In this document: in pieces, positions 8,516 through 26,920 of the stretch
Layout: every line of letters begins with the position of its first letter
How positions within the stretch are numbered: position 1 is the stretch's first letter
Program-made: the position numbers and the translations under genes
Source: Promethearchaeum syntrophicum
GTDB lineage: Archaea; Asgardarchaeota; Lokiarchaeia; Sigyniarchaeales; Promethearchaeaceae
NCBI RefSeq assembly: GCF_008000775.2
Contig: NZ_CP042905.2
Location: forward strand, 2,940,001-2,972,000
Reading direction: 5' to 3'
Length of the DNA: 32,000 nucleotides
Notes under the pieces: generated by a model
Told to the model about the DNA's origin: nothing
The model's database searches: none
Seen by the model: the letters and a program-made list of their open reading frames with translations, nothing else

Positions 8516-9310
8516 ATGAACTTTTTTCAGAAATTAATTTTAGCCCTCCTTCAAGCTATTTTAGAATGGCTTCCGGTTAGTAGTGAAGGTTTTTTAATGC
8601 TAACAGCTATAAATATTTTCGGAGAATCAGCAGATGCAGCTTTTAGCTTAGCAATTTACTTTCATTTAGGTACTGCACTAGCGGTTCTAGCAAAATACTG
8701 GAGAACATATTGGGACGCATTAGTCAAAGATCATGATATTTTAAGATTATTGATTATTTCAACAATATCTACTGGTATTATTGGAATTCCGCTATATTTA
8801 TTACTAGGAGAAGTTTTTACAGAAGTAACAGGGATGGCTATAACACTCATAATTGGAATTACGTTAATAATAACTGCCACATTACTGCGTTTTGGAAAAT
8901 TAAATGCTTCTGATAAATTAGAAATGAAAGACCGGAATCTATTGGATGAATTTGCATTAGGTGCTTGTCAAGGGTTTGCGATTTTACCTGGTATTAGTCG
9001 CTCTGGTACTACCGTTTCATTCTTACTCCTAAGAGGATTTAAAAGAGAAGACGCTTTTAAAATGAGTTTCATTATATCCTTACCTGCAGTTATAGGAGCG
9101 ATCTTATTTGATATAATATTCGGGAGTGGAAATACTACAACAGTATTAGGTTGGGATTATTTTGCGTTAATGTTAATTGTTGCTGTAGTTGCATACTTTA
9201 TGATGAGTGGTTTGCTGAAATTTGCTAAAAAACTTTCATTTGATAAAATATGTTATATACTAGGTGGAATTACAATCATTCTGGTCATATTGTTTTATAT
9301 TTTTAGTTAA
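8516..9310 (+). CDS. uppP: undecaprenyl-diphosphatase (BacA/UppP family)
   Basis: Has the signature motifs EWLPVSSEGF (compare EfLPISSsGHL) and PGISRSGTT, with about 8 TM helices in 264 aa. Confidence 0.9.
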   Translation: MNFFQKLILALLQAILEWLPVSSEGFLMLTAINIFGESADAAFSLAIYFHLGTALAVLAKYWRTYWDALVKDHDILRLLIISTISTGIIGIPLYLLLGEVFTEVTGMAITLIIGITLIITATLLRFGKLNASDKLEMKDRNLLDEFALGACQGFAILPGISRSGTTVSFLLLRGFKREDAFKMSFIISLPAVIGAILFDIIFGSGNTTTVLGWDYFALMLIVAVVAYFMMSGLLKFAKKLSFDKICYILGGITIILVILFYIFS

Positions 9311-10420: not shown

Positions 10421-13400
10421 ATGATGAAAATAATAATTATGATACTAAAATTAAATTTTCAACAAATGAATCTACCACTCCAAATTTCTAATCTTAGTCC
10501 GTATGATTACGTGAGCTATGGTATGACCATATTATTTTCTATAATAGGGATGCTGATTTTCATCAGAATGATGAGATATATCAGAGCAGAATTAAAGACC
10601 GCCCCTAAATATACACTTTTCCAAAAAATGAAGAATTTTCTGAGCGCTGTGACTTTTAGTTTAATGGTTTCCCTAGCCATAGTTTTTGTTTTAGCCCTAA
10701 TTTCATCATCTTTGGCCATAAATGCTTCATTAGCGATCAACAGAGGCGTTGGTTCAGATTTAGCATGGTCAGCAGGTATAATTCAAGCATTTAAATTTCC
10801 AACATTTATTCCGATAACTGCTACAATTATTGCAGGATTTTCGCTTTTCTATCCTCTTTACGAATATCTTATTTTGGCGGCTCCTGGCCAGGACGGAAAT
10901 ATGGAAATCCAACAGTTTCTGGAGAAAAAAATAATTGATCGCACATCACCACCTATAAGCTATCTTGTTTCAATTTTATTATATCTTTTCATTGTAGTTC
11001 TTGCGCCAACAGTTACATCATTTATTGCATTGAACTATTGGAACGTACCATCATATCTTGATGCCCCATGGGTAATTGGTCTTATCTTTTTTGTATGGAT
11101 TTTATTAGGACCAATGTTTTATCTATCATATTATTCCAAGATAGGGGCAGCCCATTCATTTTTTAGGGGTCGACGGGTAAACAGAAAGAAAGATAAAAAG
11201 ACGGGGTTCTGGTATTGGATTGCAATCCTTACTATTTTTAACACTGTATGGGCATTTATCCAATTTATTCCAATTTTATGGGGAGATTTTCCTGATCCTA
11301 CATCTCCTTTACAAAATTTCGAAGAGACTCGAGGAGATTTTATGCATACCTTAATTACCTTTTTATACAATAGAGAATTAATTTCAATAGAAACAGTCGA
11401 AAGTCTCTTCACTTTTCTTGCAATAGTTCCAATAGAATTTCTTCTTTTTATAATTACAACTTCCTTCTTTGGTTTGCTTGGATTTTATGCTAAATTTATC
11501 AGTAAAGAACCTTTGAATTCGCCAAAAATGGTATTATTCGCAGCTTATATTATCTGCGGAATAGCTTTCTCAATATTTGTTGATCAGATGGTAAAATATC
11601 CATATACCTTTCCGGATGCATTCTTAAATCAAATTGGATTAAATTTACATTTATCACCAGCACCGGGAGTATCTGAAGCAACTCTAGTTCGTGATCAAGA
11701 AATTTTTGTACGCATTTTTTCAACGGCAATTTTAATCGTAAAAACTTTGGACATAGTATTCTTATTCAATTTTCTTTTCAGAAGGAAAGAAATTAAAAAT
11801 CAGGCTGATGAATGGGTTTTAAACAAAGCAATTTTAGAAAATGATTTTGAAATCATTAAGAAATACTCGAGTCAAAAAAATTCTGAAACCAGATTAATGG
11901 TGGCTCAATCTGTTATTAACTATATACAACTAAAAGACGTACTTTCTAAAGAATCCTCAATAAGCATCGCAGATATCATGGAAGTTCTTATTAATGATGA
12001 AGATCCGGTTATTTCTGGAATAATTTCTAAACATCAAGGTGTGATAATAAGTAAACTACACCAAGATTCCCTTCTCCTTTCTTTGAAAAAGTTGTTAAAA
12101 TCAGAAGAGAAAATAAAAAATAAAAATGCAATCAATGTTCTTGAGAAAATATCAAGGGAAAATATGATCCATACTCGAATTTTACTAAAGGAAATTGTAT
12201 CATCCAACCTTTCTCAAGGAGGAGCCGAGAGTTTATTTGATTTTATTGCCGAAATTGATCAAAGAAATCATGGTTTGGCGTCTAATTTAATTGAACATCT
12301 ACTGATAAATGAAAACGAAAATTTAGTTTATGGTAGTTTAACAGTTATTGGAAAAAACTTATCAAATTTCCAACCTGAATATTCAAAAATACAACCCGAA
12401 TTATCTCAATTACTTCAACATTCAAATGTTGAAATAATTGCTAAAACGATTGATGTCTTTTCTTCATTAGCAAGCAAAAAACAAGAACATATTCCTGATG
12501 TAATGAAAGAATTTAATATAATGACAGCTATTTCACCAGAGATAATAAGGCAAAGAATTGGAGCTTTGGTTAAATTCGCAATTGTTCAACCTGAATGGTT
12601 AAATTCATTATTTGACTATTTAGAAATTTATTTAAATCATCCAAATCCTCGAATTGTAGAAGATGCTGCTGTTTCTTTAGGAAGCATTTCATCAACAATT
12701 GACTTGAAAGTATTTTTCGATCGAATTTTTCCATTTTTTAGAAAATTGGTTCATTCTAATGATCTAAATGTAAAAAAAGCGATTCTCTCATCCATGGTTG
12801 TAATATCAAAAATAAGAGAAGATATTGCAAAAGATGACAGGTTCCAACATCTTTTTAGTATTTTATTGATAGATCCTCATGTAGAAATTCGACATCAAGT
12901 CTTTAGGTTTATTGGTGAAGGAGATCCACAATTTATTTTAGGTGATATAGCAGCATTACTAACAAGTCCACTCAAAATCCAAGTTCGTATTGATTTAATG
13001 AATATATTAGCTTCTATTGCTGAAAAAATAATCCCTTATATTGATGAACTTCAATTGATTGAAATTCTTCAAAAACAAAATTTCGTAAAGGAAAAAGAAC
13101 TAAATTTTCAAGATATGATAGAATTACAAGCAGATCAATCCAAAATTTTTGGTTTTCATGAAGGAGTTAAATCAGTTTCATTAATCGGGGCAACAATTGC
13201 ACTTCTTTATGAGATTCTTTATTTCTCTCCTAAATATTATGATAATATTAATTCATTTATTAATGAAAATTTAGAAAAAGGACAGGAACTTGCTGCGGCA
13301 AAGAAAATCGAATACAAGTGTAAAGTTGTAATGGATGAATTGAAGAGAATTAAAGATCATGGGTCAAGAATAACTTTAGAAGGATTATTAAAAGATTTAG

Positions 13401-14980
13401 AGAGAGATGTGTTTATTGTTGAACCTCTAACTCAGAAAATTATTGCAGAATTTCTTTATGATGTTTATCCTATAAAAAAAGAATTCCACATAGAATTTTT
13501 CGAGATTTATACAGCTTTATGTAAACAAAGAGAATTAGAAGACAGTGATCTAAAGAGTATTTTATTAATGGGAATGGCACAAATTGTAGCGGAAAATCAT
13601 GAAATATACTTCAAACCAATGAGAATGAAAAATCTAATTGAATTTAAAGCCACGAAAACGAACCCATTTGAAACCTGTTTTAAACCGTTTTTACTTTCTA
13701 ATATGAATTCTACAGAAGAAAATATATATCAAGGAGTTTCAAAAGCGTTATACTTAATTATAGAAGTTAGTGAACAAGATAAACTAATAAGAGGGCTGTT
13801 ATTAGAAACGATTTCAAATTCTAAAAACCCCAATATCAAAATTACAGCGATAAAGGCTTTAATATCACTTCCACTTCAAATAGAAGATGAGATTACAATT
13901 AATGTTCTTTTAAAGCAAGTTAAATCAAAACATCCTTTAGTTCAAGCTGAAGCAATTCGATCTTTAGGTAACATTATTCGGATATTTCCAGTTACTTCAA
14001 CGAGATCAAGGAGTAAAGAATTTAAAAAGCTGAAGAACTTAATATATAAGGTTATTTTCGAACCCTACAAACCTGAAGCACCTTTAGAAATTAAAGAAGC
14101 GATCGTTGAACATTTACCCACCATAACTTTATTGCATCCAGATCTAAAAGTGTGCTTAAGTGCAATTAAAGCGATGGGATTGGATCCTGTTCCTTCAATT
14201 ACAACAGCTGCCGTTGAGACATATTTCCAATTAATTGATTATAAAATATCTTGCATATCTAAAGAAAAACCAAAAAACGAATCTCAACGCTTTGAATCAA
14301 TTTATGGAAATAATATCCCCGAATTACGGTTATTCCGACATTTTGCGAATAGTTCATTAACAGAAGTAAATAATATGTTGATTCGGAAAATTATAGCGCT
14401 ATATGAAAAAGAATCTGATAAAATTAACATAGATCCATTACTACCTAGCTTGACAAAATTAGCTACATCAACTTCTAAAGACATAAGAGCTCAAACTATT
14501 GCAATATTCAGTGAAATTTATTTGAAAGACCAAAAAACATTTGAATTTCTACTAGAAATGTTTTTGAAACTTGCAAACAACCGAAATCCTGAAGTAAGAC
14601 GTGATATTTGTGAGAATTTATTTAAAATAATATTCGCAAATCCAATAGGTTTCCAAGAAAATATTTCAATATTCCAAACATTACTAAAACTTTCAATGGA
14701 TTCAGATTTTGAAATTCAATCAATTATTGCAATGAATTTAAAAGAATGTATTGAAAAATGTCCGAAAAGAGCCAATGATTTACTTCAGATCATTTATGTT
14801 TTCTTACGAAGATCGGATGCGCCAATTAAACAGAAAGCAATTATGGCAATTAGGGATATCTGGGTAAAAAATCCAATTTTACAGAAAGATATCTTAAATA
14901 GCGTTCAAAGATATTATAAGAAATCGGGAGATGCGCTACTTCTGACATTAATAGGGAATTTATCTGAAGTAAAAAAATAA
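10421..14980 (+). CDS. giant polytopic-membrane protein with about 1050-aa cytoplasmic HEAT/ARM-repeat solenoid
   Basis: An uninterrupted 4.56-kb ORF in AT-rich DNA. Residues 1 to about 455 contain about 9 hydrophobic helices. The rest is helical repeats with classic HEAT signatures (HPNPRIVEDAAVSLGSI, SNDLNVKKAILSSMVVI, DPHVEIRHQVFRFIGE, NPNIKITAIKALISL, HPLVQAEAIRSLGNI, SKDIRAQTIAIFSEI, NPEVRRDICENLFKI, DAPIKQKAIMAIRDI). The start among four nearby Met codons is uncertain. Confidence 0.75.
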   Translation: MMKIIIMILKLNFQQMNLPLQISNLSPYDYVSYGMTILFSIIGMLIFIRMMRYIRAELKTAPKYTLFQKMKNFLSAVTFSLMVSLAIVFVLALISSSLAINASLAINRGVGSDLAWSAGIIQAFKFPTFIPITATIIAGFSLFYPLYEYLILAAPGQDGNMEIQQFLEKKIIDRTSPPISYLVSILLYLFIVVLAPTVTSFIALNYWNVPSYLDAPWVIGLIFFVWILLGPMFYLSYYSKIGAAHSFFRGRRVNRKKDKKTGFWYWIAILTIFNTVWAFIQFIPILWGDFPDPTSPLQNFEETRGDFMHTLITFLYNRELISIETVESLFTFLAIVPIEFLLFIITTSFFGLLGFYAKFISKEPLNSPKMVLFAAYIICGIAFSIFVDQMVKYPYTFPDAFLNQIGLNLHLSPAPGVSEATLVRDQEIFVRIFSTAILIVKTLDIVFLFNFLFRRKEIKNQADEWVLNKAILENDFEIIKKYSSQKNSETRLMVAQSVINYIQLKDVLSKESSISIADIMEVLINDEDPVISGIISKHQGVIISKLHQDSLLLSLKKLLKSEEKIKNKNAINVLEKISRENMIHTRILLKEIVSSNLSQGGAESLFDFIAEIDQRNHGLASNLIEHLLINENENLVYGSLTVIGKNLSNFQPEYSKIQPELSQLLQHSNVEIIAKTIDVFSSLASKKQEHIPDVMKEFNIMTAISPEIIRQRIGALVKFAIVQPEWLNSLFDYLEIYLNHPNPRIVEDAAVSLGSISSTIDLKVFFDRIFPFFRKLVHSNDLNVKKAILSSMVVISKIREDIAKDDRFQHLFSILLIDPHVEIRHQVFRFIGEGDPQFILGDIAALLTSPLKIQVRIDLMNILASIAEKIIPYIDELQLIEILQKQNFVKEKELNFQDMIELQADQSKIFGFHEGVKSVSLIGATIALLYEILYFSPKYYDNINSFINENLEKGQELAAAKKIEYKCKVVMDELKRIKDHGSRITLEGLLKDLERDVFIVEPLTQKIIAEFLYDVYPIKKEFHIEFFEIYTALCKQRELEDSDLKSILLMGMAQIVAENHEIYFKPMRMKNLIEFKATKTNPFETCFKPFLLSNMNSTEENIYQGVSKALYLIIEVSEQDKLIRGLLLETISNSKNPNIKITAIKALISLPLQIEDEITINVLLKQVKSKHPLVQAEAIRSLGNIIRIFPVTSTRSRSKEFKKLKNLIYKVIFEPYKPEAPLEIKEAIVEHLPTITLLHPDLKVCLSAIKAMGLDPVPSITTAAVETYFQLIDYKISCISKEKPKNESQRFESIYGNNIPELRLFRHFANSSLTEVNNMLIRKIIALYEKESDKINIDPLLPSLTKLATSTSKDIRAQTIAIFSEIYLKDQKTFEFLLEMFLKLANNRNPEVRRDICENLFKIIFANPIGFQENISIFQTLLKLSMDSDFEIQSIIAMNLKECIEKCPKRANDLLQIIYVFLRRSDAPIKQKAIMAIRDIWVKNPILQKDILNSVQRYYKKSGDALLLTLIGNLSEVKK

Positions 14981-15120: not shown

Positions 15121-15375
15121 ATGTCTGAAGAAAAGAAAACTGGAATTGTAAAATGGTTCAACAGTAGAAAAGGATATGGTTTTATTACACCTGCTGAAGA
15201 TGCTGAAGGAGCTGATATCTTCGTTCATTATACAGCTATCAAAGTTGAAAGTGATGATCAATATAGAGCTTTAAATGAAGGAGACAAAGTAAGCTTTAAA
15301 GTGAGTGATGGGAAGAAGGGCCCTGAAGCCCGTGACGTTGAAATCGTAGAAAAAGCTCCACGTGACAGAAGTTAG
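15121..15375 (+). CDS. csp: cold-shock domain protein (CspA family)
   Basis: GIVKWFNSRKGYGFI (RNP1) and DIFVHY (RNP2) are present, with the OB-fold length. A short basic C-terminal extension KKGPEARDVEIVEKAPRDRS follows. Confidence 0.9.
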   Translation: MSEEKKTGIVKWFNSRKGYGFITPAEDAEGADIFVHYTAIKVESDDQYRALNEGDKVSFKVSDGKKGPEARDVEIVEKAPRDRS

Positions 15376-15409: not shown

Positions 15410-16810
15410 TTAATTCTTATATTGTTTTAATTTTGAGATAAATCCTTGAATTAATTTAGAAGATTGTAATTCTCCTTTTGAATTTAATTCCTTTTGAGCT
15501 ACCGAGCAGAGTTTTAATAATTCAGAAATACCACTCATAAGAGAAAGACTGATAAATGTTTTGTGAGAACGTAAAATATTGTCGGGATTTTGCACTGAAT
15601 TTATGATAGGAGGAAATCTCTCGTTAATTAGGATTCTCAATTGATTATCAGGTCGGTTAGGTTCAAAACTACCTTCTAAAACATCTAACATTTTATGTTG
15701 AATTTCTTCTAAGAATTTGTGAATTGTGCAATTTTTAGAGAATTTGACTTTATCAGCACAGCGAAAAACAGCCAATCGCATTATTTCTTCCCACAAATGA
15801 GCATATTTTCGGATATAAGGGTACATGGTTCGATTAATTTCGGTGGATAAATGACCATGGAATTCTTCTTTTGATTTATCCCAATATTTTTTCGATGTTT
15901 CAATAATGGATTTATTATCTATGAATTCTAATCTAGTTTTTCCAAAAACTTCATCAGGATGACTAATTGCGGGTAAGATTTCTGCACCTGTTCTCTTATG
16001 GAGAGAAATATAACTTTGGGGAGTATGAATTAAGTAGGGAAATTTCCCGAATATAAATGGTACTCTTAATTGGGATTTTGTGGAATAATCATGATATACG
16101 ACGAATGCATTGTTCTCTTTCAAGATTGATTCAATTTTATGTGAAATTTTAGAAAATTTTGTTGAAGCAAATGCATAAGCATTACTAAATGATGCTCTGT
16201 TAGCAGTTTCATACATAAGTAGATTAGAAACACTAACGACTAACGCAATTTTTTTATTTAAACCAGGGATTTGTATCATAATATTTGGGGAATGTAAAAA
16301 TTGACCAATATGAAGAATAGGGATAATTACCCCTTTTCCCTTCTTAAAAGCTTCTTCTAATCTTTCTGAATGTTGCAGACTATAAAACTTATCGAAAGGT
16401 AAATCTCCTGTAAGGGGGAATCTGAAGGCAATATCTAAAAAGAGCATGGCCATAAATTTATTTGCAGCATCAATTAATTTTTGAAGTCTTTTCTCTGAAA
16501 TTCCGGGATATAGTGCAGTAAAACTTGCTCTCATTTTTCTTTGAACAGATTTCGAGGATCCAAAAGCAAATTTTCCTATGAAATGTCCAAATCCGTTTAA
16601 TATAGAAAACGGGACGAATCGAAATGGTGAATATATATGATTTTTATGTATCCAAGCGAAGATTTTAAATACAGGACCCATAGTTGTTCCCCAGCTCTGA
16701 TCGGATTTTTTTGTTCGAAAACTTTCTGATTTTTCTGATGGGGGTTTTTTTCCCACTTTTTTCTGATCTGAGCGCAAGGATTTCTTATCAGCATAGTAAA
16801 TATGAGCCAT
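15410..16810 (-). CDS. LpxL/HtrB/PatA-family (lipid A biosynthesis acyltransferase-like) lysophospholipid/glycolipid acyltransferase with C-terminal extension
   Basis: Collinear by eye with E. coli LpxL. [15 protein letters not shown] matches [35 protein letters not shown] matches [31 protein letters not shown] matches [20 protein letters not shown] matches PEQYMWLHRRFK. An extra helical tail of about 115 aa is present. The basic N-terminal 43 aa may not be translated (alternative start M44 at 16681). Confidence 0.65.
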   Translation of the reverse strand: [466 protein letters not shown]

Positions 16811-16953
16811 AATAGTTCTAGTTAGTAATTTTTATAATACTTAATATACCTTTTGATCTATATAATATTCTTAATCATCGTTTTACTTAACCAACCTTTT
16901 GTATTAATATTCATAAACCCATAGGTTTTTTAATCCGAATTTTCGTAAGTTGG

Positions 16954-17160
16954 TTGGTGATAAAATTGTCGGAGGATGCAGAGAGTCTTGTATTTAGAGC
17001 TAATAAAAAAGCGGACTTGAAGCGTGATTCAAACAAAATCCCAAAAATTGATGTTGATCCTATTTTAAGAGATAGCTACATCTCATTCTTAGAAAATATA
17101 TATGACGACGTAATTAATGCTCGAATCCGCTCAAATAACAAACAAAACGATATAAAATAG
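16954..17160 (+). CDS. doubtful small ORF (68 aa), hypothetical
   Basis: It is open only from TTG/GTG (16954/16957) and has no in-frame ATG at all. It is hydrophilic with no recognisable motif. It is followed by a T11 run (17166..17176). It may be non-coding spacer. Confidence 0.2.
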   Translation: MVIKLSEDAESLVFRANKKADLKRDSNKIPKIDVDPILRDSYISFLENIYDDVINARIRSNNKQNDIK

Positions 17161-17222
17161 CACGTTTTTTTTTTTCTTTCCTTTTTCCCTTCTTATTTTT
17201 TGTACTGAACTTTTTAATTTTC

Positions 17223-18887
17223 TTATTCCAAAGGATAAATGTGATTTTTTCTTCCTATCTTTTCGATTCTGATAAGATTGGAAGACATAAGTTTATCTAA
17301 ATGATATTTTATTGTTTTCCTATTAAGATCCATTCTTTTTGCTATTTGATACTGAACAATACCAGGATTATCCCCAACAATCTGAAATATATCCAAAGTG
17401 GTCTTACTTTTAATTAGATTAATGTCAAATTCAGCAAATGGATTTTTTTCAATAAAAGGATAAAATATTAGGAATCTTCCTACACGTTTTTTCGAGATTA
17501 TCTTGTATGTTTCCAAGATATCAAGATGCCAGGCTAAATTACTACTCGAAGTATCTACTGATCGTAATAATTCACTATAATGAATTCCAGGATTTTCGAT
17601 TATAAGATTTAGGATTTGATTCCTAAATTCGTTTTCAAGGACATCTTCCATTGTAAGTCTGTGAACTCCTTTATCTATATCTATGATTCTATTTAATAAA
17701 TAATGTCTATACTCTTGTTTTGTCATTATTAAACCAAAAAGAAGTAGAACGCCTAATAAAATATAAATTAAATATGAAAATGGATTACCAGGTGAAAATG
17801 GAACTGTTGGTAATCGAATAATTCCTTTGACCCCAATCTTAGGATCATGATAAATATGAGCCCCCCTTGGATAATTTAAATAGACTCTTTGCAAATTTTC
17901 TTCTGATATAGATATTGTATTAACAGAAACATTTTTTTCAATATCATCAACTAATGCATATTGACTCCAACTAAAAAATCCAGAAATATCAGCAGGAGAT
18001 GTCTGTATCCATTCTTCATTTTGGCTATATCCATTAGCTTCATCTTCAGTTTCATCATCTTCAGTTTCATCATCTTCATCAAATTCATTTTCAGATTCTA
18101 TATCCATTACTAAAGAAAGTTGTGAAGAGCTATCGGAATATGTGTAATTTGCTATTTCGATATCGATTTTCATTTGAGTGGGTATAAGTAAAATATCGTT
18201 AAGTTCGTAATATTCTTCTACAAAAAAAATATGAAAAATTAAGTTATCATTTGTTGTTGAAATTTGAAAATAATGCATTTTAGAAGTATTTTTTATTGTA
18301 TAATTTGAATATTGAAAATCATTAAATGAATCTAATGAGGTTTCATTGAGAAGTGTATCTTGATTTTCGGTAAAAATCGAATCGTTATTATTATCTATAA
18401 ATTCAATTAGAGTAGAAAAAACTATCTCAAATTCTACTTCAAGTTCACTAGATTCAGTATCTTTCGAATATTCTAAATTAATTTTCAATCCTTCATCTTC
18501 AGTTTGTATTTCAATTGAAATTTTATCTTTTACTTCACCTTGATGTAACGTAGATTCAATATGAGCTTCATTTTCAGAATACTTTACATCTACTTCTCTT
18601 TCATTTAAATCTTCAGTCTCATCATCAATTCCATCTTCATCTTCATCTTCATCAGGTTCATTTTCTGGTTCTTCTTCCTCTCCATCTGCACTTCTTATAT
18701 CTTCTCTATTTTCTTGAGTAATATCTTCAAATTGATCTAATGATAGAATCTCCTTCAAAAAATTTTCTGAATCAAAAATATTTGTTTCTTGATTTTCAAG
18801 ATTTAATATCTGTAAAGAACTCATTAAAAGAAGGGAGAACATTATAAAGACAGAAAGATAAGGAATTTTTTTCATGCTTTTCAACAA
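17223..18887 (-). CDS. single-pass transmembrane transcription regulator: secreted acidic ectodomain + TM + two cytoplasmic winged-helix (ArsR/TrmB-like) domains
   Basis: A signal peptide (MLKSMKKIPYLSVFIMFSLLLMSSLQ) is followed by an ectodomain paralogous to 18928..20010. The TM helix is FSYLIYILLGVLLLFGLIM (nt about 17724..17780). Two wHTH units follow: NQILNLIIENPGIHYSELLRSVDTSSSNLAWHLDILETYKIISKKRVGRFLIFYP and TLDIFQIVGDNPGIVQYQIAKRMDLNRKTIKYHLDKLMSSNLIRIEKIGRKNHIYP. Confidence 0.75.
   Translation of the reverse strand: MLKSMKKIPYLSVFIMFSLLLMSSLQILNLENQETNIFDSENFLKEILSLDQFEDITQENREDIRSADGEEEEPENEPDEDEDEDGIDDETEDLNEREVDVKYSENEAHIESTLHQGEVKDKISIEIQTEDEGLKINLEYSKDTESSELEVEFEIVFSTLIEFIDNNNDSIFTENQDTLLNETSLDSFNDFQYSNYTIKNTSKMHYFQISTTNDNLIFHIFFVEEYYELNDILLIPTQMKIDIEIANYTYSDSSSQLSLVMDIESENEFDEDDETEDDETEDEANGYSQNEEWIQTSPADISGFFSWSQYALVDDIEKNVSVNTISISEENLQRVYLNYPRGAHIYHDPKIGVKGIIRLPTVPFSPGNPFSYLIYILLGVLLLFGLIMTKQEYRHYLLNRIIDIDKGVHRLTMEDVLENEFRNQILNLIIENPGIHYSELLRSVDTSSSNLAWHLDILETYKIISKKRVGRFLIFYPFIEKNPFAEFDINLIKSKTTLDIFQIVGDNPGIVQYQIAKRMDLNRKTIKYHLDKLMSSNLIRIEKIGRKNHIYPLE
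18044..18073. repeat. perfect 2 x 15-nt tandem duplication inside the acidic tract of the wHTH-fusion gene
   Basis: CTTCAGTTTCATCAT occurs at 18044..18058 and again at 18059..18073, encoding DETED-DETED on the minus strand. The same 15-mer occurs once at the equivalent site of the paralog (19284..19298). Confidence 0.9.
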
Positions 18888-18927
18888 ATTGTTATAAATA
18901 TATAAAAAAAAAAGGATATATATCTTT

Positions 18928-20010
18928 TTAGACTCGATTTTTATTACGTTTTAAACCAATCATCGCAATTATTGCTGCTGAAAAGGCAAATAATGTCCAC
19001 ACAGGAAATCCTGGAATACTATCTAAGATAGATGGTGTAGGTGCTTCAGTTAAAATCCCGACCATTCCAATTTTTGGATCATGATAAATGTGTGTTCCTC
19101 GAGGATAAACTATATACATTTTGTCAGAGTCAGAGTCAATATCATCAGTTTCAATTGGTGTAGTAGAAACATTCATAACAGTTCCATCAATTAAAGCGGT
19201 TTCAGCCCAGGTAAAATCTGCCATAAAACCATTTGTTGAGGTAGTAATTCCACTTTCGTTTTCAACATAACCATTTTCTTCGTCTTCAGTTTCATCATCT
19301 TCTTCTATTTCATAATCTGTTTCCAATTTGGTATAAACTGCTAGTTGTGAAGAGTCATTCAAATATGGAAAATTAGAAATTTCAATATCAATTTTTACCT
19401 CAGTTGGTGTGAGAATAGTAGTGTCGAGATCCATAAATTCTCCCGCTACATAAAGATGTGCTGTGAAATAATAATCAGCAGTGCTTATATTTAAATAGTG
19501 CAGTGTTGAGTTATCAGCTTGTGTTATAGGTTTGTATTCAATTGGATTGAAGGTATCAATTTTATATTCTTGGATTTCAGTATCATTATCTGAATTATAT
19601 ATTCCATTTTCATCCAAATCAATAAATTCTATAACGGATTTGAATACAACTTTAAATTCCAATTCCATTTCGGTAACTTCGGTTTCATTAGTTATTTCTG
19701 ATTCATATTCAAGTTTGATACCAAGATCATCGCCTGCTTCAACTTTGATTTGAAATTCATCTTTAGTGTCTCCATTCTTTAATTGTGATTCGATTTGAAT
19801 TTCATTATCGCTATATTCTATAGAAATTTCGCGTTCATTTTCATCTTCATATTCATCGTCGATACCATCATCGTCATGATCTTCATCCTCTTCATCATTA
19901 TCACTAGAATCAGCAGGTTCATCAGTATCTGTTTCAGCGACTCCAAGAGTTAAACCAACTGAAATAATAAAAGCTCCAATAAGAAGCATTCCCAATAATT
20001 TTTTTTTCAT
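18928..20010 (-). CDS. secreted acidic surface protein with PGF-CTERM-like (archaeosortase-type) C-terminal anchor
   Basis: Carries a signal peptide (MKKKLLGMLLIGAFIISVGLTLGVA), poly-D/E tracts and a beta-rich domain. The C-terminus is SIPGFPVWTLFAFSAAIIAMIGLKRNKNRV (nt 18931..19014), that is PGF, a hydrophobic helix and a basic tail. Confidence 0.7.
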   Translation of the reverse strand: MKKKLLGMLLIGAFIISVGLTLGVAETDTDEPADSSDNDEEDEDHDDDGIDDEYEDENEREISIEYSDNEIQIESQLKNGDTKDEFQIKVEAGDDLGIKLEYESEITNETEVTEMELEFKVVFKSVIEFIDLDENGIYNSDNDTEIQEYKIDTFNPIEYKPITQADNSTLHYLNISTADYYFTAHLYVAGEFMDLDTTILTPTEVKIDIEISNFPYLNDSSQLAVYTKLETDYEIEEDDETEDEENGYVENESGITTSTNGFMADFTWAETALIDGTVMNVSTTPIETDDIDSDSDKMYIVYPRGTHIYHDPKIGMVGILTEAPTPSILDSIPGFPVWTLFAFSAAIIAMIGLKRNKNRV

Positions 20011-20401
20011 GATTATTCAACTTTTTTAGTTGTAATTTATTTATCTCGTGGTCCTTATTTAAACGAATTGGGAGGATTTTCACCCTATTTCTTTTAGAAA
20101 ATCTCTCCGCTAAACATAAAAGTATGCAACTTTTAAAATAAAGGTAAAAATCAAAGATTTTGTTTTTTTTATAACCTTAGAAAAAAAATGCTTATTTTAG
20201 TATGAATTGAATGGTCAAAACAGTATTTATAAATTGCATTCTCTAAGGCTATTAGAGCCTATAGCTATAAAAAAAACCTTTTTTCGTTCTTAAGTGTTTT
20301 CTAAGGCTAATGAATATATTATAAGTATCATCATATGAAACATTTGCATTTATATTGGATGATTTTATTATCAAGTTTCATCAAATATATATTGAATTAA
20401 T

Positions 20402-20842
20402 ATGTTAAAAGAAGGCGATAATGCACCAAAAAATATTGAATTAAATGACCAAGAAGGGAATTTAATTAAATTGGATGATTTTAAGGGAGAAAAACTAGTA
20501 GTATATTTCTATCCCAAAGATAATACACCTGGTTGTACACTTGAAGCAAAGAATTTTAAAGATTCAATCGAAGATTATAACAAAAAAGGAATTAAAATTA
20601 TTGGTATAAGCGCAGATTCTGTAAAATCTCATAAAAATTTTGTTTCAAAATACGAAATTCCGTTTACACTGCTCTCGGACTCTGAAAAAAAAGCAGCAAA
20701 AAGTTTTGGTGCTTTAGAGCAAGGAAAAGTTAAAAGAAGAACATGGTTAATTAATGAAAATTGGCAGATTGAAAAAGCTTTTGAAAAAGTATCCCCAACA
20801 AAGCACATTCAAGAATTAGCTGAATTTTATCAACTGAAATAA
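20402..20842 (+). CDS. bcp: thioredoxin-dependent peroxiredoxin, BCP type
   Basis: Has VVYFYPKDNTPGCTLEAKNF (the peroxidatic Cys motif FYPkDxTPGCT.E). The 146-aa size and the C-terminal RRTWLI pattern are typical of Bcp/PrxQ. Confidence 0.9.
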   Translation: MLKEGDNAPKNIELNDQEGNLIKLDDFKGEKLVVYFYPKDNTPGCTLEAKNFKDSIEDYNKKGIKIIGISADSVKSHKNFVSKYEIPFTLLSDSEKKAAKSFGALEQGKVKRRTWLINENWQIEKAFEKVSPTKHIQELAEFYQLK

Positions 20843-20972: not shown

Positions 20973-21896
20973 ATGGCTGTAGAGTTAGAAGATGTCCCGC
21001 CGCAGAAAATCCAAAAATCCGTAGGATTAACCAAAACTCCTAGATATAAAAATTTTGTCGCAATATCAAATAGAAAAATTCCCAACTATTGTTCAAAACA
21101 TGATTTACATATAGATCATATTACAGGTGATACTATATGTACTAAATGTGGTCTTGTTATCGATGAGCATCTAGTTATTTCTCAAAATTATGTAAATTGG
21201 AAATCGAATATAGATACATTTTCTACATATCAACAAAAGGATAGATATTTCTCACAGGATTTGATACGCGCTTTAAGAAGAGGACATAATATTTCATGGA
21301 ACGAGAGAAGAGAAAAAATCGGAATAAATGAGATTAATCGAATTACTGCTTTGCATAATATAGGGAAATCAATAAAAGAAAGGGCAATCAAACTTTTCCA
21401 AAAAATAATCAAGGAGGATGTTTTTCAGAATCACTATATTAAGCTTATCGCAGTAATTAGTTTTTACCAAATTATTAAAGAGGAAAAAAATCCATTAAGT
21501 TTGACCGAAATCATTGAAAATTCCGATTTTTCTAACCGTCTTGCAAATAAATATTATTACACTGTTAGGAAATGTCTAAATATTAAAGCGATATCTATAA
21601 AATCAAATGATCCCAAAATTTACATTCCAAACATATGCTCATCCTTAAGAGTAAATCAAGATATTAATGAATTAGCACGCAAAATAATTGATAATTTCCA
21701 AAAATCTGTGAATTTATCAGGTTTTAAATTAAAAGGTATTGCAGCGGCAGGCGTGTATATTGCTTGTAGATTAAATAGTATCCCAAAATCTCAAAAAGAA
21801 GTTTCTAAAGCCGCAAATATCACCGATTGCACATTACGTTCTCGAGTCAAAGATATGGAAATTTATTTGAGAAGAAATAGAAGTATCTGGGAATAG
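20973..21896 (+). CDS. tfb: transcription initiation factor B (TFIIB-type) paralog, divergent
   Basis: The N-terminal ribbon is CSKH...GDTICTKCGLVIDE (CxxH...CxxC rather than CxxC...CxxC). Two cyclin-fold repeats follow. The second is canonical (GFKLKGIAAAGVYIACRLNSIPKSQKEVSKAANITDCTLRSRVKDM). The first lacks the usual GRS motif. Confidence 0.8.
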   Translation: MAVELEDVPPQKIQKSVGLTKTPRYKNFVAISNRKIPNYCSKHDLHIDHITGDTICTKCGLVIDEHLVISQNYVNWKSNIDTFSTYQQKDRYFSQDLIRALRRGHNISWNERREKIGINEINRITALHNIGKSIKERAIKLFQKIIKEDVFQNHYIKLIAVISFYQIIKEEKNPLSLTEIIENSDFSNRLANKYYYTVRKCLNIKAISIKSNDPKIYIPNICSSLRVNQDINELARKIIDNFQKSVNLSGFKLKGIAAAGVYIACRLNSIPKSQKEVSKAANITDCTLRSRVKDMEIYLRRNRSIWE

Positions 21897-21958: not shown

Positions 21959-24900
21959 ATGGAAAAGAAAGAAAAAAGCGATAAAGCAAATTTCGGTAAA
22001 ATTTTTTTTACTAGATTTATTGATGATAAATGTGATCGCCAATTATTCCTAAAGTTATGTCAAAATAATCCAAATTGGATGGATCCCCTTCGTGATATTG
22101 CTAAATTAAAAAGACCTGTAAGGACAAATGAATATATTTTAAATCTCGGTAAGGCGTATGAACAAAAAGTATATAGTTTTCTAAATAAATCTCTGAATAC
22201 AAAATATATAAAAGATAAATCTACGAAAAAAATTCACCAAACTAAATTAAAATTTCATGACTTAGATGATTGTTACTCTAAAATTCATGAAGGAAAATCT
22301 CCTTATTTGATACTCTTAGAAAATGAATTTCAAACTCCAATCTCATTTAAAAAATCAATTTTTCCTACTAAAAATTCAGAGAATCCAATAGATGTTAAAT
22401 TTTCAGATCAAAGGCCAGATATAATAATTATTAGAAAAAATCTTGATACAATGAATAAAGGTGATATATATGAACTTTTACCCAACGGAGAAAGGCGAAA
22501 ATTACCTAACAATGAAATTAATAATCGTTTATCCATAAATGTAATAGATATTAAAAATACTGCCGAGCAAGATATAGGAAAAAAACATTTTATTGAAATC
22601 ATGCTCTATTTAAGATCTTTTTCTCATTTCATATACGATCATAAATTAGAAAAGAATTTTTTTATTTCGATAAGCAAGAACGGTATATTCCCTAAATATA
22701 CCGAAGACATTTTAAAGAATATAAAAAATTTAGAAAGGTTTGAACAATTTGTTATAGAAATTCCATGGAATGAATCAGATCGGATTTTTACTAGTACTGT
22801 AAATAAATTGCATGATCTTCATGAAATAAGCCCTTGTGCAGTGGAAGATATATCAGTAAACATTCATCCTAATTGCGGTTTTTGTCCCTTTTTAGAAGAT
22901 TGTAAAAAAACTCTGGGGATGAATGATAGGGATAGTCCTAAAAATTGGTCATTACAATTAATACCTTTTAATTCTAGATCAATTTCCCAACAATTGGAAT
23001 CTTATGGTTTTAAAACAATAGGTGATGTAGAAAGAGGGTTAAAAAAAATAAAGGTAGGAAATACTCCAGCTCCATTGTACCCAGAACTTCCACTACTAGA
23101 AATGAAAGTTAAATCATTGATTAATAATGAAATAACTACTCCAATACCTGGAAAAGTACACTCTTACTGCATTCCAAAATTTACCCCTATTTCACTTTCG
23201 TTTGCGATTGAAACAGATCCATCAAGTGATAGGGTATTTGCTGCTGGAATTTATTTAAAGATGATTGTCGCAAAGAAAGCGAAAAATTATCATATCTTTA
23301 AAAAATGGTGGAAAATTTGGAAAAAGGCTTTAGATACTTCAAAATCTCCAGATTTTATTAAAACTCAGTTAGACACCAATTGTTTTTCAATAGACCAACA
23401 AATTCCCTTAGAAATCGTTGATAAATTCTTAAAACTTTTAAAGGATCTAAAAAATTTCAAGATTTTCATCCCTGGTATGCTCGTAAATGGAAAAGAGGTA
23501 ATTCAAACACGGGTCTTGGGTTTTTATGCCATTATCAACGAAAGTTTGGACCCCGATAAAGAAGATGAATTAGCTATAAATTTGGTAAATAATCTCTTCC
23601 CTATGATGGAACTTTGCAATATTGTAGAAAGATATGTTCTCACAAGGGAAATTAAATATTTCAATAAGAAAGACGGTTCAACCAAGGAATATATTTACGA
23701 ATATAAAGCAGATATGGGAATTTTTTATTGGTCAAAAAGTCAAATCGAGCATTTACAAGATATGTTAGAAAGGAATTTAGAAAAAATTATAAGTAGAACA
23801 ACCATCCGGAATAAATTTTCCTCATTAATATCTTGGTTTACACCTTCAGATTCCGAGGTAACACATCCTTATCAACATAAGAAAATTTTTAATTTACGAG
23901 CATTCATAGAAACCGTAATAGGCTTTCCAGGTATTATTAATTATACATGGCACGAAATTGTTAAACATCCTTCAAATGGAGGGCTTAATAGTAATAAACT
24001 GTTTTGGATTGAACATTTCAATTATATGGATCCCACACCATGGTATGATTATCTTGAAGCAAAAGGCGATCATTCTAAACAAAAAAAATTGAAGAATGAA
24101 ATAATCAAACAAGTAATCCATAAAACTCGAGCTTTGAACACACTACGTGAAAATTTTCAATATCGCACACGGCATGCAATTTCAAAACATGCTAGACCTA
24201 TAAAATCAACTGCAATTAAACAAAAAACTTTAGGAGAAAATTATCATAGCCTTGCTCATGTTTGGTATTTATTTTCAGAATTAAATGGAACTATGCAAGA
24301 ATTAGAAGCAAATAATATTCGAACGATATATCCAGAATACAGTATAGGAAAATTGAACGCAGCTAAGATATCTGATTTATATCAAGTTGATAATCCTTTA
24401 GTAAAATATAACATTTTTCAATTTCAAATTATAAATTTATCCAGTAATATGAAAATTAATGAAGGAGATTATGTATTACTAATTCCAGATGAATTAAGAG
24501 ACCTTAGAAAATGGGAACTTGATAGAAAATGGAGAGTAAAAATACATAAAATGATTTGGAATTCAAAAAGTAAAGGTTATTTGATGGAAGTCCATTCTAC
24601 AGAAAATCTTCTAATTTTATATGATAAAACAATTGAAAATAAACCAGAAATTCCTAATTGGTATTTATATCCAACATCAATGGATGCCTGGACCAATAAA
24701 TTATATGGAATACGTGTTGGAGGTCTTCTTGAAAGAAAAAGATTTGGAATAAGTTGGTTAGGTGCAAGATTAGCCTATTTATGGAATATTCGTTCAAAAA
24801 ATAATCTTTTTTGGCCAAAAAATTGGGAATTTTCTTCTAATGAAATATATATGTATTTACCTAAGTTGCTTGAAATAATTAAAGAAATCCCTGGAAAAAA

Positions 24901-26920
24901 ACTATTGACTAATATATGCCCTACTCCAGATGAATCGCAAATAGAAGCAATCAAAAACGCTCTTGATAACGTGATTTATGCAATTATAGGACCTCCAGGA
25001 ACGGGAAAATCACAAACAATTGTGGCTTTAATTGATGAATTTATCTTCCGTTCAGAACAAAATAAAAAACCTATCCGTATATTAGTAACCTCTTTTTCAT
25101 ACACAGCACTTCGAGTTATAATAGATAAAATTAGAAAGAGTAAAAATGTTGAGGGGAATAAATCAAAAGCCGCAGAAATGCAACTTATTTTTCTAAGATC
25201 TGAAAGCCAACTCCCTATTGCTGAAACAGCTGAATGTACATTCGTTAATGATCTTGTTAGATTACCCAATGGAAGCTGGAGATGGAATGGTGAATCAAAA
25301 AAAATTACCAAATCAAAACCTTTGGAAGATCAATTAATGGAGAATTTCGTAATTTTTGGAAATGCCCATCAACTTTTTAGATTGACTGAAAGAACTTCTC
25401 CCGGATTTGTATTTGATTTAATTTTAGTTGATGAAGCAAGTCAATTACCAACAGATTATTTTTTATCAAGCCTACAATATATAAAAAACCAAACTTTCCA
25501 TATTCAACCAAATATTCCGGAGATGGTATCATTAACACCAAATTCCTTAGTAGAATCTAGGGATCATATTGAGAAAATGAATCTATTAAATCCAATAGAT
25601 ATAAGAAATGTTACTAAAGTCGTAATAGTTGGAGATTATAATCAGCTACCTCCCGTCCAACCAATATCACCTCCAAAGAATTTAGAAAAGGTTTTAGATA
25701 GCCTTTTTGCCTATTATGTAAAGTATCATGATATAAATAGATCCCAATTAAAAACAAATTATCGTTCACATCAAGATATCGTTGATTTCACCAAGACCTT
25801 AGGAATCTATGAGGGTTTACACCCAACTTCTTCTTTAGCGAATAAAACTTTGCAAGGAGATGTAAATCGAATCGATCAATCATGGGTCCAAGAAATATTA
25901 GACCCAACCAAAGTGGTTTGTTCATTAATACATAACAAAAGGTTTGAAATTGCGGTTAGTTCCATTGAAGCAGAATTCGCATCAGAAATAGTAATAGGTT
26001 ACTATGAAATGTGTAACATTAAATCGAGTAAGGATGAAAGGGTATTTTGGAAGGAAAAAATTGGTGTTGTCGCCCCTCATAATGCTCAAGGTCGCTTAAT
26101 CATACATGATATCTTCGAAAAAATGACTAAACCATCCAAAAGTCTAACTCAATTAAATAATAGCGAGTTAATGTCACATTTAAAAAGTACTGTGTATTCT
26201 GTTGAGAAATTTCAAGGGTCTGATCGCGAATTAATAATTGCATCAGTAGGATTATCAGATATTGATCAAATTAGTGCAGAAGAAGAGTTTATTTATGATT
26301 TGAATAGATTTAACGTTCTAACATCCCGTGCAAAGAAAAAAATAATCTATATTTGCAGCGATTCCTTTTTAGATTTCATCCCAAATTCTCGTGATGTCAT
26401 GAAACACGCATCACATAGTTATAATTATGCTTATAAATTTTGTAATCGAGAAAAAGTTATTTTTATCAAAAACGAAAAAAATAATTTGGATTATATTTAT
26501 TTTCGATGGAAGGAAAACAGCAAAAAATTGGATAAATCATTAGAAACATTTAAAATTGATTCACAAATCAATGGAGATTATTTCGAAATAAGTTATTCAC
26601 CCAAAATGGAATTTGATTCTTTAATCCAAGACATCCCAAAAGATATTTATAAAAATAAATCAGATAAAAACCTTGATTCTGATCGCGAGATATGGCGATT
26701 TAAATTTACTGATATTCCGAAGATCCGCAAATTTATTGTAATTCCAGACCCAATTTATCAAGAATATGCTAATAAATTTGAAGAACTAATCGATGAATCC
26801 AAAGAAGAAAGTAATCGAATTAATGAACAGGTAAAATTTAAAAAAAAGATTAAGAAAAGTGGTAGAAAAAAAATTAATGTAGATTTTGGTGATAATGATG
26901 AAGATGATTCACTCTTCTAA
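21959..26920 (+). CDS. giant multidomain enzyme: Cas4/Dna2-type Fe-S PD-(D/E)XK nuclease + RNase H-like module + Upf1/Dna2-type SF1B helicase
   Basis: Nuclease: C25 plus C306-x2-C309-x5-C315 (22874..22903), with PD154 (22418) and D197-x-K199 (22547..22555). Middle module: an HhH-like segment, then FAIETDP (E418 at 23210) and FYWSKSQIEHL. Helicase motifs: GPPGTGKS (24989..25012), LVDEASQL (25427..), VGDYNQLPPV, NYRSHQDIVDF, KFQGSDRELIIAS, FNVLTSRAKKKI. Confidence 0.8.
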   Translation: MEKKEKSDKANFGKIFFTRFIDDKCDRQLFLKLCQNNPNWMDPLRDIAKLKRPVRTNEYILNLGKAYEQKVYSFLNKSLNTKYIKDKSTKKIHQTKLKFHDLDDCYSKIHEGKSPYLILLENEFQTPISFKKSIFPTKNSENPIDVKFSDQRPDIIIIRKNLDTMNKGDIYELLPNGERRKLPNNEINNRLSINVIDIKNTAEQDIGKKHFIEIMLYLRSFSHFIYDHKLEKNFFISISKNGIFPKYTEDILKNIKNLERFEQFVIEIPWNESDRIFTSTVNKLHDLHEISPCAVEDISVNIHPNCGFCPFLEDCKKTLGMNDRDSPKNWSLQLIPFNSRSISQQLESYGFKTIGDVERGLKKIKVGNTPAPLYPELPLLEMKVKSLINNEITTPIPGKVHSYCIPKFTPISLSFAIETDPSSDRVFAAGIYLKMIVAKKAKNYHIFKKWWKIWKKALDTSKSPDFIKTQLDTNCFSIDQQIPLEIVDKFLKLLKDLKNFKIFIPGMLVNGKEVIQTRVLGFYAIINESLDPDKEDELAINLVNNLFPMMELCNIVERYVLTREIKYFNKKDGSTKEYIYEYKADMGIFYWSKSQIEHLQDMLERNLEKIISRTTIRNKFSSLISWFTPSDSEVTHPYQHKKIFNLRAFIETVIGFPGIINYTWHEIVKHPSNGGLNSNKLFWIEHFNYMDPTPWYDYLEAKGDHSKQKKLKNEIIKQVIHKTRALNTLRENFQYRTRHAISKHARPIKSTAIKQKTLGENYHSLAHVWYLFSELNGTMQELEANNIRTIYPEYSIGKLNAAKISDLYQVDNPLVKYNIFQFQIINLSSNMKINEGDYVLLIPDELRDLRKWELDRKWRVKIHKMIWNSKSKGYLMEVHSTENLLILYDKTIENKPEIPNWYLYPTSMDAWTNKLYGIRVGGLLERKRFGISWLGARLAYLWNIRSKNNLFWPKNWEFSSNEIYMYLPKLLEIIKEIPGKKLLTNICPTPDESQIEAIKNALDNVIYAIIGPPGTGKSQTIVALIDEFIFRSEQNKKPIRILVTSFSYTALRVIIDKIRKSKNVEGNKSKAAEMQLIFLRSESQLPIAETAECTFVNDLVRLPNGSWRWNGESKKITKSKPLEDQLMENFVIFGNAHQLFRLTERTSPGFVFDLILVDEASQLPTDYFLSSLQYIKNQTFHIQPNIPEMVSLTPNSLVESRDHIEKMNLLNPIDIRNVTKVVIVGDYNQLPPVQPISPPKNLEKVLDSLFAYYVKYHDINRSQLKTNYRSHQDIVDFTKTLGIYEGLHPTSSLANKTLQGDVNRIDQSWVQEILDPTKVVCSLIHNKRFEIAVSSIEAEFASEIVIGYYEMCNIKSSKDERVFWKEKIGVVAPHNAQGRLIIHDIFEKMTKPSKSLTQLNNSELMSHLKSTVYSVEKFQGSDRELIIASVGLSDIDQISAEEEFIYDLNRFNVLTSRAKKKIIYICSDSFLDFIPNSRDVMKHASHSYNYAYKFCNREKVIFIKNEKNNLDYIYFRWKENSKKLDKSLETFKIDSQINGDYFEISYSPKMEFDSLIQDIPKDIYKNKSDKNLDSDREIWRFKFTDIPKIRKFIVIPDPIYQEYANKFEELIDESKEESNRINEQVKFKKKIKKSGRKKINVDFGDNDEDDSLF

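Follow-up and report, generated by a model that had tools for sequence, protein, structure and literature searches.

The window analysed here is a 32,000-nt stretch of the genome of Promethearchaeum syntrophicum MK-D1, a cultured Lokiarchaeon (contig NZ_CP042905.2, positions 2,940,001 to 2,972,000), with a G+C content of ~30% throughout. On its minus strand lie two neighbouring genes, referred to here as A and B. Gene A encodes a surface protein that comprises, from its N- to its C-terminus, a signal peptide, an acidic linker, an ectodomain resembling that of the eukaryotic protein GLMP (also NCU-G1) and a Loki-CTERM anchor. Gene B encodes a membrane-tethered regulator in which a paralogue of the same ectodomain is followed by a transmembrane (TM) helix and two winged helix-turn-helix (wHTH) domains. 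We find that this pair represents the rarer, fused version of a cassette that otherwise comprises three genes and is distributed across the Asgard phyla, and that it is no invention of one genome. The features of the locus are as follows, with protein positions in amino acids (aa):

20064-20118 and 20056-20063, minus strand: conserved 55-nt block and TATA box (TTTAAATA) upstream of A, together a candidate promoter/operator proposed from the sequence
18928..20010, minus strand: gene A (DSAG12_03184), an open reading frame of 360 aa with 100% identity to P0001 of Promethearchaeum syntrophicum
19936..20010, minus strand: signal peptide of A, aa 1-25 (MKKK...TLGVA, cleaved before E), from hydrophobicity, with a putative AxA-like cleavage site read from the sequence
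19033..19884, minus strand: ectodomain of A, aa 43-326, an all-beta sandwich that is GLMP/NCU-G1-like in its AlphaFold2 model and in Foldseek
19846..19881, minus strand: DxDxDG-type loop of A (DHDDDGIDDEYE), which opens the folded domain and may bind a divalent cation, from conservation and the model
18934..19017, minus strand: Loki-CTERM sorting domain of A (IPGF, TM helix, KRNKNR; NCBIfam NF033507)
18892..18913, minus strand: A-B spacer, with a T10 run (18904-18913) and then a TATA-like sequence, ATATATTTATAA (18892-18903)
17223..18875, minus strand: gene B (WP_147664246.1), membrane-tethered regulator of 550 aa from its ATG, with an alternative TTG at 18887 (554-aa frame)
18795..18875, minus strand: N-terminal hydrophobic helix of B, aa 1-27, from hydrophobicity (helix 6-27 in the model)
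17820..18650, minus strand: ectodomain of B, aa 76-352, paralogue of the A ectodomain (predicted local distance difference test, pLDDT, >90)
18612-18647, minus strand: DxDxDG loop within the B ectodomain
17727..17783, minus strand: TM helix of B, aa 365-383, from the model and from hydrophobicity (369-391 in the 554-aa frame)
17652..17726, minus strand: basic juxtamembrane helix and short flexible linker of B, aa 384-408 (MTKQEYRHYLLNR...), from the model and the positive-inside rule
17457..17651, minus strand: wHTH 1 of B, aa 409-473 (PF24266 HTH_HVO_0163_N), from Pfam, the model and phmmer
17232..17423, minus strand: wHTH 2 of B, aa 485-548 (PF13412 HTH_24; MarR and ArsR models match too), from Pfam and the model

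BLASTP aligns A and B over 275 collinear residues with 41% identity and 63% positives (E = 1e-58), a similarity that, judged by this alignment, is far above chance, the acidic low-complexity tracts of both proteins notwithstanding. An initial annotation of the locus, made from the sequence alone, had described a long collinear ectodomain common to the two proteins and had quoted three blocks of similarity; the alignment bears out the former, and all three blocks were found verbatim in the translations. The same annotation had the two genes 40 bp apart on one strand. Both do lie on the minus strand at the coordinates it gave, but the gap is likely 52 bp, because the GenBank/RefSeq protein WP_147664246.1 has 550 aa, which makes the ATG at 18875 the most likely start of gene B rather than the TTG at 18887. 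The RefSeq label of this protein is merely 'winged helix-turn-helix transcriptional regulator'. The synteny of the window is preserved in the metagenomic loci L004 and L005, where AhpC, TFB and helicase genes flank the pair on one side and genes for an acyltransferase, a CSD protein and a HEAT protein on the other. Given the conserved synteny and the intact reading frames, we ruled out that A and B are similar by chance, form a pair of pseudogenes or derive from a mobile element or virus; structural matches to the ectodomain among viruses are limited to two Pandoravirus proteins, which likewise speaks against a viral origin.

Protein A has two hydrophobic segments, one N-terminal and one C-terminal. 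Its residues 332-359 match the Loki-CTERM model NF033507 with 23.6 bits (cut-off 19.9), and B gives no such match. Going by this match and by the order of PGF motif, TM helix and basic tail, the C-terminus of A is a sorting signal, and therefore more than the plain membrane anchor described in the initial annotation, although the C-terminal TM segment itself is present as claimed. A literature search on Loki-CTERM, HVO_0163 and the locus tags found no relevant paper.

For B, a full-length AlphaFold model was built from a 53-sequence alignment (mean pLDDT 85; residues in the 550-aa frame). Behind the N-terminal helix, the model contains a disordered acidic stretch (28-84), a beta-sandwich with the fold seen in A (~85-350), the TM helix, a basic juxtamembrane helix (386-397) and a flexible linker of ~10 residues (398-408; pLDDT <50 at residues 398-403), and it ends in two wHTH domains, each consisting of three helices and a beta hairpin at pLDDT ~90-97. 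Both domains are above the Pfam cut-offs, with 45.4 bits for wHTH 1 against PF24266 (cut-off 31) and 54.9 bits for wHTH 2 against PF13412 (cut-off 21.9), which confirms that B runs past its TM helix into two winged helices. The nearest solved sequence relative of wHTH 1 is 5duk_A (phmmer, E 2.8e-6), and no OmpR/Trans_reg_C match was found in B by the Pfam scan. On these profile matches, the two wHTH domains rank as genuine members of the ArsR/MarR-like winged-helix families (PF13412, PF24266, PF12840 and PF01047).

The orientation of B follows from the charges around its TM helix. There are ~5 lysines or arginines in the 23 residues on the C-terminal side of the helix versus 1 before it, which, under the positive-inside rule, places the winged helices in the cytoplasm, as had been expected. 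The proposal of a signal peptide common to A and B held in part: an N-terminal hydrophobic segment is present in both, but that of B has no obvious signal-peptidase site and may be a second TM helix instead. Whichever of the two it is, the ectodomain is outside and the wHTH domains are inside. The cytoplasmic part of B amounts to 167 residues, and a tether of ~25 residues leads from the membrane to wHTH 1. Overall, BLASTP, Pfam and the full-length model support the earlier description of B as having the architecture of a transmembrane one-component regulator whose sensor is paralogous to the neighbouring surface protein.

The folded domain of the family opens with an acidic loop of the consensus D-x-D-x-D-G-[IV]-x-D-x-x-E. 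Among 242 ectodomains, aspartate occupies positions 1, 3, 5 and 9 in 87%, 87%, 89% and 84%, respectively, glycine occupies position 6 in 71% and glutamate position 12 in 90%, while the positions in between vary. DxDxDG-type Ca2+ loops (EF-hand-like or thrombospondin type 3-like) carry acidic ligands at positions 1, 3, 5, 9 and 12 and a glycine at position 6, and the conserved positions found here are, at the level of the motif, the signature of such a loop. In the model of A, the loop is a coil followed by a helix (model residues 10-16, pLDDT 81-88). Ca2+, which the initial annotation had named as a possible ligand, thus gains sequence-level support from the 71-90% conservation of positions 1, 3, 5, 6, 9 and 12, and we retain it as a putative ligand.

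GLMP/NCU-G1 is a lysosomal membrane protein of eukaryotes, humans included, and its structures are the best solved matches of both A and B. The AlphaFold2 model of the A ectodomain, built from a 36-sequence alignment, is all-beta (pLDDT 92; predicted template modelling score, pTM, 0.89), and a Foldseek search of the PDB with this model returned GLMP entries at the top (8r8q_B, E 1.1e-8, TMq 0.63; 6nyq_C, E 1.2e-7, TMq 0.61). The model of B returned GLMP entries at the top again (6nyq_C, E 1.4e-10; 8r8q_B, E 4.9e-10); over both models, the TM-scores of the GLMP matches span 0.50-0.63 with a root-mean-square deviation (RMSD) of 7-8 Å. The second tier for model A consists of sandwich domains from the N-termini of glycoside hydrolases and phosphorylases (TM-score <=0.40), in agreement with the literature on GLMP, where the luminal domain is described as a beta-sandwich similar to that by which a cellodextrin phosphorylase dimerises (PMC11252000). 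At the sequence level, PF15065 (NCU-G1/GLMP) is the commonest Pfam match in the family, with 5/36 and 36/110 members, and the next family reaches 17/110; each row inspected singly covers profile positions ~51-205 of 353. The protein P0247, whose membership of the family is clear (E 4e-52 to the family profile), scores 30.6 bits (E 2.3e-7) and is the one member above the PF15065 gathering score of 27. The layout is also shared, since A has the signal peptide, outside domain, single TM helix and short basic tail of GLMP, a type I layout from which B departs through its 167-residue cytoplasmic part. We conclude that the ectodomain and GLMP probably share ancestry, through a link that is transitive and structure-based rather than direct. 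The ectodomain, which the initial annotation had left outside any named family, is accordingly best placed as a distant relative of PF15065.

Several searches weigh against this relationship. Protein A has no Pfam match at E <= 1 and is not above the PF15065 gathering score, and the 16 Pfam matches of B at E <= 1 all belong to winged-helix or other models of its cytoplasmic part, none of them PF15065. Searches of the PDB sequences with the family profiles A2 and A4 and with the single protein P0255 returned no GLMP chain. In hhalign, the family reached a probability of 0.5-1.7% against the 6NYQ chain and a 20-species, mammal-only GLMP alignment (the GLMP query sequence for these comparisons being the 6nyq_C chain, E 2.7e-222), and a direct hmmsearch of the family versus mammalian GLMP gave ~0 bits. 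These null results, the RMSD of 7-8 Å and the fact that N-terminal domains of glycoside hydrolases belong to the same fold class would fit convergence on a common beta-sandwich, with the ectodomain being an Asgard-specific carbohydrate-binding or dimerisation sandwich of separate ancestry. We consider this unlikely. GLMP comes out on top for two independent models, with a lead over the next fold relatives of ~0.2 in TM-score and 3-5 orders of magnitude in E-value; PF15065 leads the Pfam matches by 36 versus 17 of 110 members, in one register in the rows inspected and with one member above the cut-off; the alignment with mammalian GLMP, weak as it is, falls into that expected register for 106/120 real versus 13/120 shuffled sequences; and the overall type I topology is identical.

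The two sides of the proposed relationship share a beta-sandwich of ~280-300 residues on the outside or in the lumen, and they differ in several respects. The Asgard proteins are archaeal and belong to the cell surface rather than the lysosome, their domain opens with the DxDxDG loop, and they occur as tandem paralogues, one of which is coupled to a wHTH regulator by fusion or by a tail. The known role of GLMP is that of an accessory subunit of the lysosomal transporter MFSD1, which it binds by means of its TM helix and of a luminal loop that is conserved and negatively charged (PMC11252000), and an MFSD1-type partner was not seen in the Asgard neighbourhoods. This accessory role is not sensing, yet it is compatible with a sensor role of the Asgard proteins. 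We found no literature joining GLMP or NCU-G1 with archaea or Asgard archaea. It should be noted that two Pandoravirus entries of BFVD, A0A2U7UC85 and A0A0B5J2G4, match the ectodomain model (E ~1e-6; TMq 0.52 and 0.44, respectively); these two proteins may carry a GLMP-like domain acquired from an amoebal host.

When 1.84 billion representatives (clusters at 50% identity) were searched exhaustively with the family profile, 1,241 members reached E <= 1e-3, of which 715 reached E <= 1e-10. In a scan of one genome per GTDB species, the family was present in Promethearchaeota (Lokiarchaeia) and in Heimdall-, Hod-, Thor-, Hermod- and Odinarchaeota, and thus in every Asgard phylum sampled. Family members were also found on contigs of metagenome-assembled genomes labelled Hadarchaeota, Thermoproteota, Bathyarchaeia and Thermoplasmatota (L078, L080, L082, L085), three of which form the outgroup in a neighbour-joining (NJ) tree; the family may truly extend beyond Asgard archaea, or these labels may reflect binning errors. 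Hidden Markov models assigned 264 sampled proteins to architecture classes: 185 are short anchored forms like A, 63 have a TM helix and a cytoplasmic tail of ~100 aa, which ends ...EMLSLTPEER..., 14 have a TM helix and tandem wHTH domains like B, and 2 fit none of these descriptions.

Gene order was surveyed in one genome per GTDB species, which returned 76 loci. The commonest arrangement, with 35 loci and 1 partial (Loki, Hermod, Thor, Hod and Odin), is a short form followed by a tail-bearing form and then by a free wHTH protein of ~220 aa. A short form followed by a fused form, as in the window, occurs at 4 loci, all of them in Lokiarchaeia and Lokiarchaeum ossiferum among them. Two tandem short paralogues without a regulator account for 20 loci, 15 of them in Heimdall genomes, a single copy within the available DNA for 15 loci of mixed taxa, and a short form followed by a wHTH protein of ~190 aa for 1 locus (L085). 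Two of these patterns, short-tail-regulator and short-fused, recur in the metagenomic loci L001-L007. The neighbour relation of A and B noted initially is therefore strongly conserved elsewhere, as a short paralogue precedes the fused gene in 4/4 GTDB fused loci and in L004-L007 and precedes the unfused form in 35 loci. At three loci (L002, L014 and L033), two complete short-tail-regulator cassettes stand in tandem on a single contig.

The regulator of the fused form corresponds to the free regulator of the unfused one. The cytoplasmic part of B aligns to residues 83-228 of the free protein (hhalign 99.1%, E 8.6e-19, 144 columns; BLASTP 29% identity, E 7e-15). The free regulator is a three-module wHTH protein, and B matches its last two modules; because the alignment covers residues 83-228 only, B is without the first regulator module of ~80 residues and without the tail of the membrane paralogue. 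This tail has no Pfam family and no homology to the regulator (hhalign <1%); a match between tail and ArsR in the search with profile A4 was rejected as an artefact in which MAFFT had merged tail and wHTH columns. As the simplest reading, we suggest that the tail and the first module could form a non-covalent docking pair, which the fusion would have replaced by a peptide bond. A word-index search with the cytoplasmic part of B found 9 proteins only. Beside P0247 (L086 1001..3764, and L087), the next gene encodes a 481-aa protein with the same tandem wHTH at its C-terminus (E 3.6e-14), in which ectodomain and tail are not detectable.

In an unbootstrapped NJ tree, used qualitatively, the fused forms belong mostly to one ectodomain clade, with others elsewhere; since they occur in more than one clade, the fusion either recurred or was reversed. 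In rough NJ trees, likewise unbootstrapped and indicative only, the ectodomains of short and of tail-bearing forms group into several clades that are reciprocal sisters, which suggests that the neighbours co-evolve or undergo gene conversion.

The DNA between and upstream of the two genes is also partly conserved. Over the last ~105 nt before the ATG of A, identity to L004 and L005 is ~80%, whereas the sequence farther upstream is no longer conserved. In the A-B spacer, ATATATTTATAA lies ~25 nt upstream of the ATG of B, and an element of AATCC and oligo-T is kept in L004 and L012; the spacers of distant fused loci gave no alignment. The T10 run is likely a terminator of A, and the spacer as a whole suggests that transcription of A ends here and that B is transcribed from its own, nearly leaderless promoter. 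In a repeat search of 16800-20420, nothing emerged beyond codon repeats from poly-D/E stretches and weak pairs of AT-rich sequence.

Overall, the module is a single-pass membrane-tethered regulator of a known kind in a new form. With ToxR and CadC, B shares a winged helix, a single TM helix and an outside sensor in one chain. ToxS, a membrane-anchored protein encoded beside ToxR, binds the outside domain of ToxR (PMC7496328), and B works like a regulator of the ToxR/CadC type with a ToxS-like neighbour. It is, however, not a member of that family, because the domain order and the type of wHTH differ: ToxR and CadC carry an OmpR-type wHTH at the N-terminus, inside the cell, and their sensor at the C-terminus, outside, whereas the order is reversed in B and its domains are of the ArsR/MarR type. 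Moreover, ToxS is not a paralogue of the ToxR sensor, and the sensor folds are unrelated to that of B. The unfused cassette resembles BlaR1-BlaI, MecR1-MecI and anti-sigma/sigma pairs in combining a single-pass membrane protein, composed of an outside domain and a cytoplasmic part, with a small soluble wHTH protein encoded immediately downstream; in contrast to these pairs, the Asgard tail has no protease domain or Pfam family, the regulator has three winged-helix modules, and the cassette always adds a third gene, the anchored sensor paralogue.

SREBP, ATF6 and Notch are eukaryotic membrane-tethered transcription factors released by regulated proteolysis. As in these proteins, the predicted DNA-binding domain of B is held on a TM tether, and the shortness of this tether makes a cleavage switch plausible; the differences are that no site-2-protease or rhomboid gene is conserved near B and that there is no nucleus. 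PF0095 of Pyrococcus furiosus (2QUF), an archaeal tandem-wHTH regulator, likewise combines a pair of ArsR/MarR-like winged helices in a single chain (Foldseek E 5e-3). It and the putative DNA-binding protein 5DUK are soluble and, unlike B, lack a TM helix and an ectodomain.

Based on these findings, we propose, with moderate confidence, that A and B are the fused version of an Asgard-wide module that signals from the envelope to transcription. The GLMP-like sandwiches of the anchored A and the membrane-spanning B would stand side by side on the cell surface, with A kept there by its Loki-CTERM signal. The membrane paralogue B would hold a tandem wHTH of the ArsR/MarR type at the membrane, covalently in this genome and by docking of the tail to the regulator module elsewhere. 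Some outside cue, perhaps a divalent cation or a glycan, or else the condition or abundance of A itself, would shift the association of the ectodomains. This shift would in turn affect how the regulator oligomerises, whether it can reach DNA or whether it is released by proteolysis, and the regulator may then act on the promoter region of its own cassette and possibly on further genes. Because only ~25 residues separate the membrane from wHTH 1, B would have to bind DNA at the membrane, in the manner of ToxR and CadC, or be cleaved.

Four results count against this proposal. There is no conserved protease gene near the cassette, and with a tether of ~25 residues the switch step is left unexplained. 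A shared operator motif in the flanking and intergenic DNA, for which the initial annotation had suggested a search, did not emerge at a significant level: the candidate AWAWATCCTYYY has 3 occurrences versus 1.2 expected, and 16/100 shuffles reach 3. Foldseek matches of the tandem winged helices include the non-transcriptional ScpB, SelB, ESCRT-II and RPC34 at E ~1e-4. Finally, Heimdall lineages retain the paralogue pair without a regulator, and therefore the core function of the ectodomain pair may be other than signalling.

The last two of these points also feed the stronger of two alternatives, namely that A and B assemble into a heteromeric complex, of the envelope or for adhesion, in which the tandem winged helices serve as a protein-protein or chromosome-tethering adaptor to the nucleoid or cytoskeleton. 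RPC34 (8iue_P, E 7e-5), ScpB (3w6j_E, E 1.2e-4), SelB and ESCRT-II (3cuq_A) match at least as well as single ArsR/MarR repressors, and the sorting signal of A is of a kind usual for abundant surface proteins. We nevertheless regard an adaptor as improbable, given that both domains are above the cut-offs of the classical DNA-binding families HTH_24, MarR, HTH_5 and HTH_20, that their nearest solved sequence relatives are DNA-binding proteins and ArsR-type repressors, and that the free partner is a small three-wHTH protein without a further domain. Less probable still is that A and B are GLMP-like accessory subunits that stabilise a polytopic membrane protein, with the regulator reporting the assembly of the partner: fold and topology are as in GLMP, the conserved acidic ETEDE loop of the Asgard family might be equivalent to the loop by which GLMP holds MFSD1 together with its TM helix (PMC11252000; the loop equivalence is putative), and an MFS transporter is encoded ~4.6 kb from P0247 in L086 and L087, yet no transporter gene is conserved beside the cassette in the window or in L001-L007, and the constant neighbour is a second copy of the ectodomain and not a polytopic protein.

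The proposed signalling module and its relationship to GLMP bear on both archaeal regulation and eukaryotic ancestry. Asgard archaea are the closest known relatives of eukaryotes, and to our knowledge few membrane proteins are specific to these two groups; such proteins bear on the origin of the eukaryotic endomembrane system. We tentatively raise the possibility that GLMP is an unrecognised eukaryotic signature protein of Asgard origin, derived from a surface receptor with paired paralogues wired to a transcription regulator by way of the form prevailing in Heimdallarchaeota, which is short and anchored and has no regulator; we would call this a fair possibility, if somewhat less likely than not. 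As far as the literature searched shows, neither the eukaryotic lysosomal relative of the sensor domain nor the split/fused cassette conserved across Asgard archaea has been reported. More than 1,200 clusters that carry generic labels ('hypothetical protein', wHTH regulator) are thereby placed beside a structurally solved endolysosomal membrane protein. Very few one-component transmembrane signalling routes are known to us in Archaea, and the split and fused forms together provide a wiring diagram for a putative archaeal route from the cell exterior to the promoter. The fused form is present in both cultured Lokiarchaeia, Promethearchaeum syntrophicum and Lokiarchaeum ossiferum, which opens the system to antibodies, proteomics and transcriptomics. 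The pairing of ectodomain paralogues also suggests that GLMP-like sandwiches act as dimerisation modules and may in this way inform on GLMP itself.

Several other genes of the window deserve mention. Convergent with gene B lies a small open reading frame of ~61-68 aa (16954..17160, plus strand) without a Pfam match; its counterpart in L004, at 8973..9158 (minus strand), is ~75% identical to it, and it is probably a real small gene kept beside the A-B pair in Promethearchaeum. The 1519-aa protein encoded at 10421..14980 (plus strand), syntenic in L004, has a multi-TM N-terminal third and C-terminal HEAT/Arm repeats; with 33.5 bits against Adaptin_N, slightly below the cut-off of 37, it can be described as membrane-anchored and adaptin/HEAT-like. 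Next to it are genes for a bacterial-type cold-shock protein (15121..15375, plus strand; CSD, 84 bits) and for a protein resembling a lipid A biosynthesis acyltransferase (15410..16810, minus strand; 28.2 bits versus a cut-off of 22.3), both in an archaeon. On the far side of the AhpC gene, and divergent from the A-B pair, a TFB/TFIIB paralogue is encoded at 20973..21896 (plus strand), in which a single cyclin-like repeat was detected and the zinc ribbon scores 27.2 bits versus a cut-off of 29. It is followed at 21959..26920 (plus strand) by a 1653-aa SF1 helicase (AAA_11/AAA_12, Upf1-like), which is kept in L004 and L005 and whose initial ~950 residues are without a Pfam family match.

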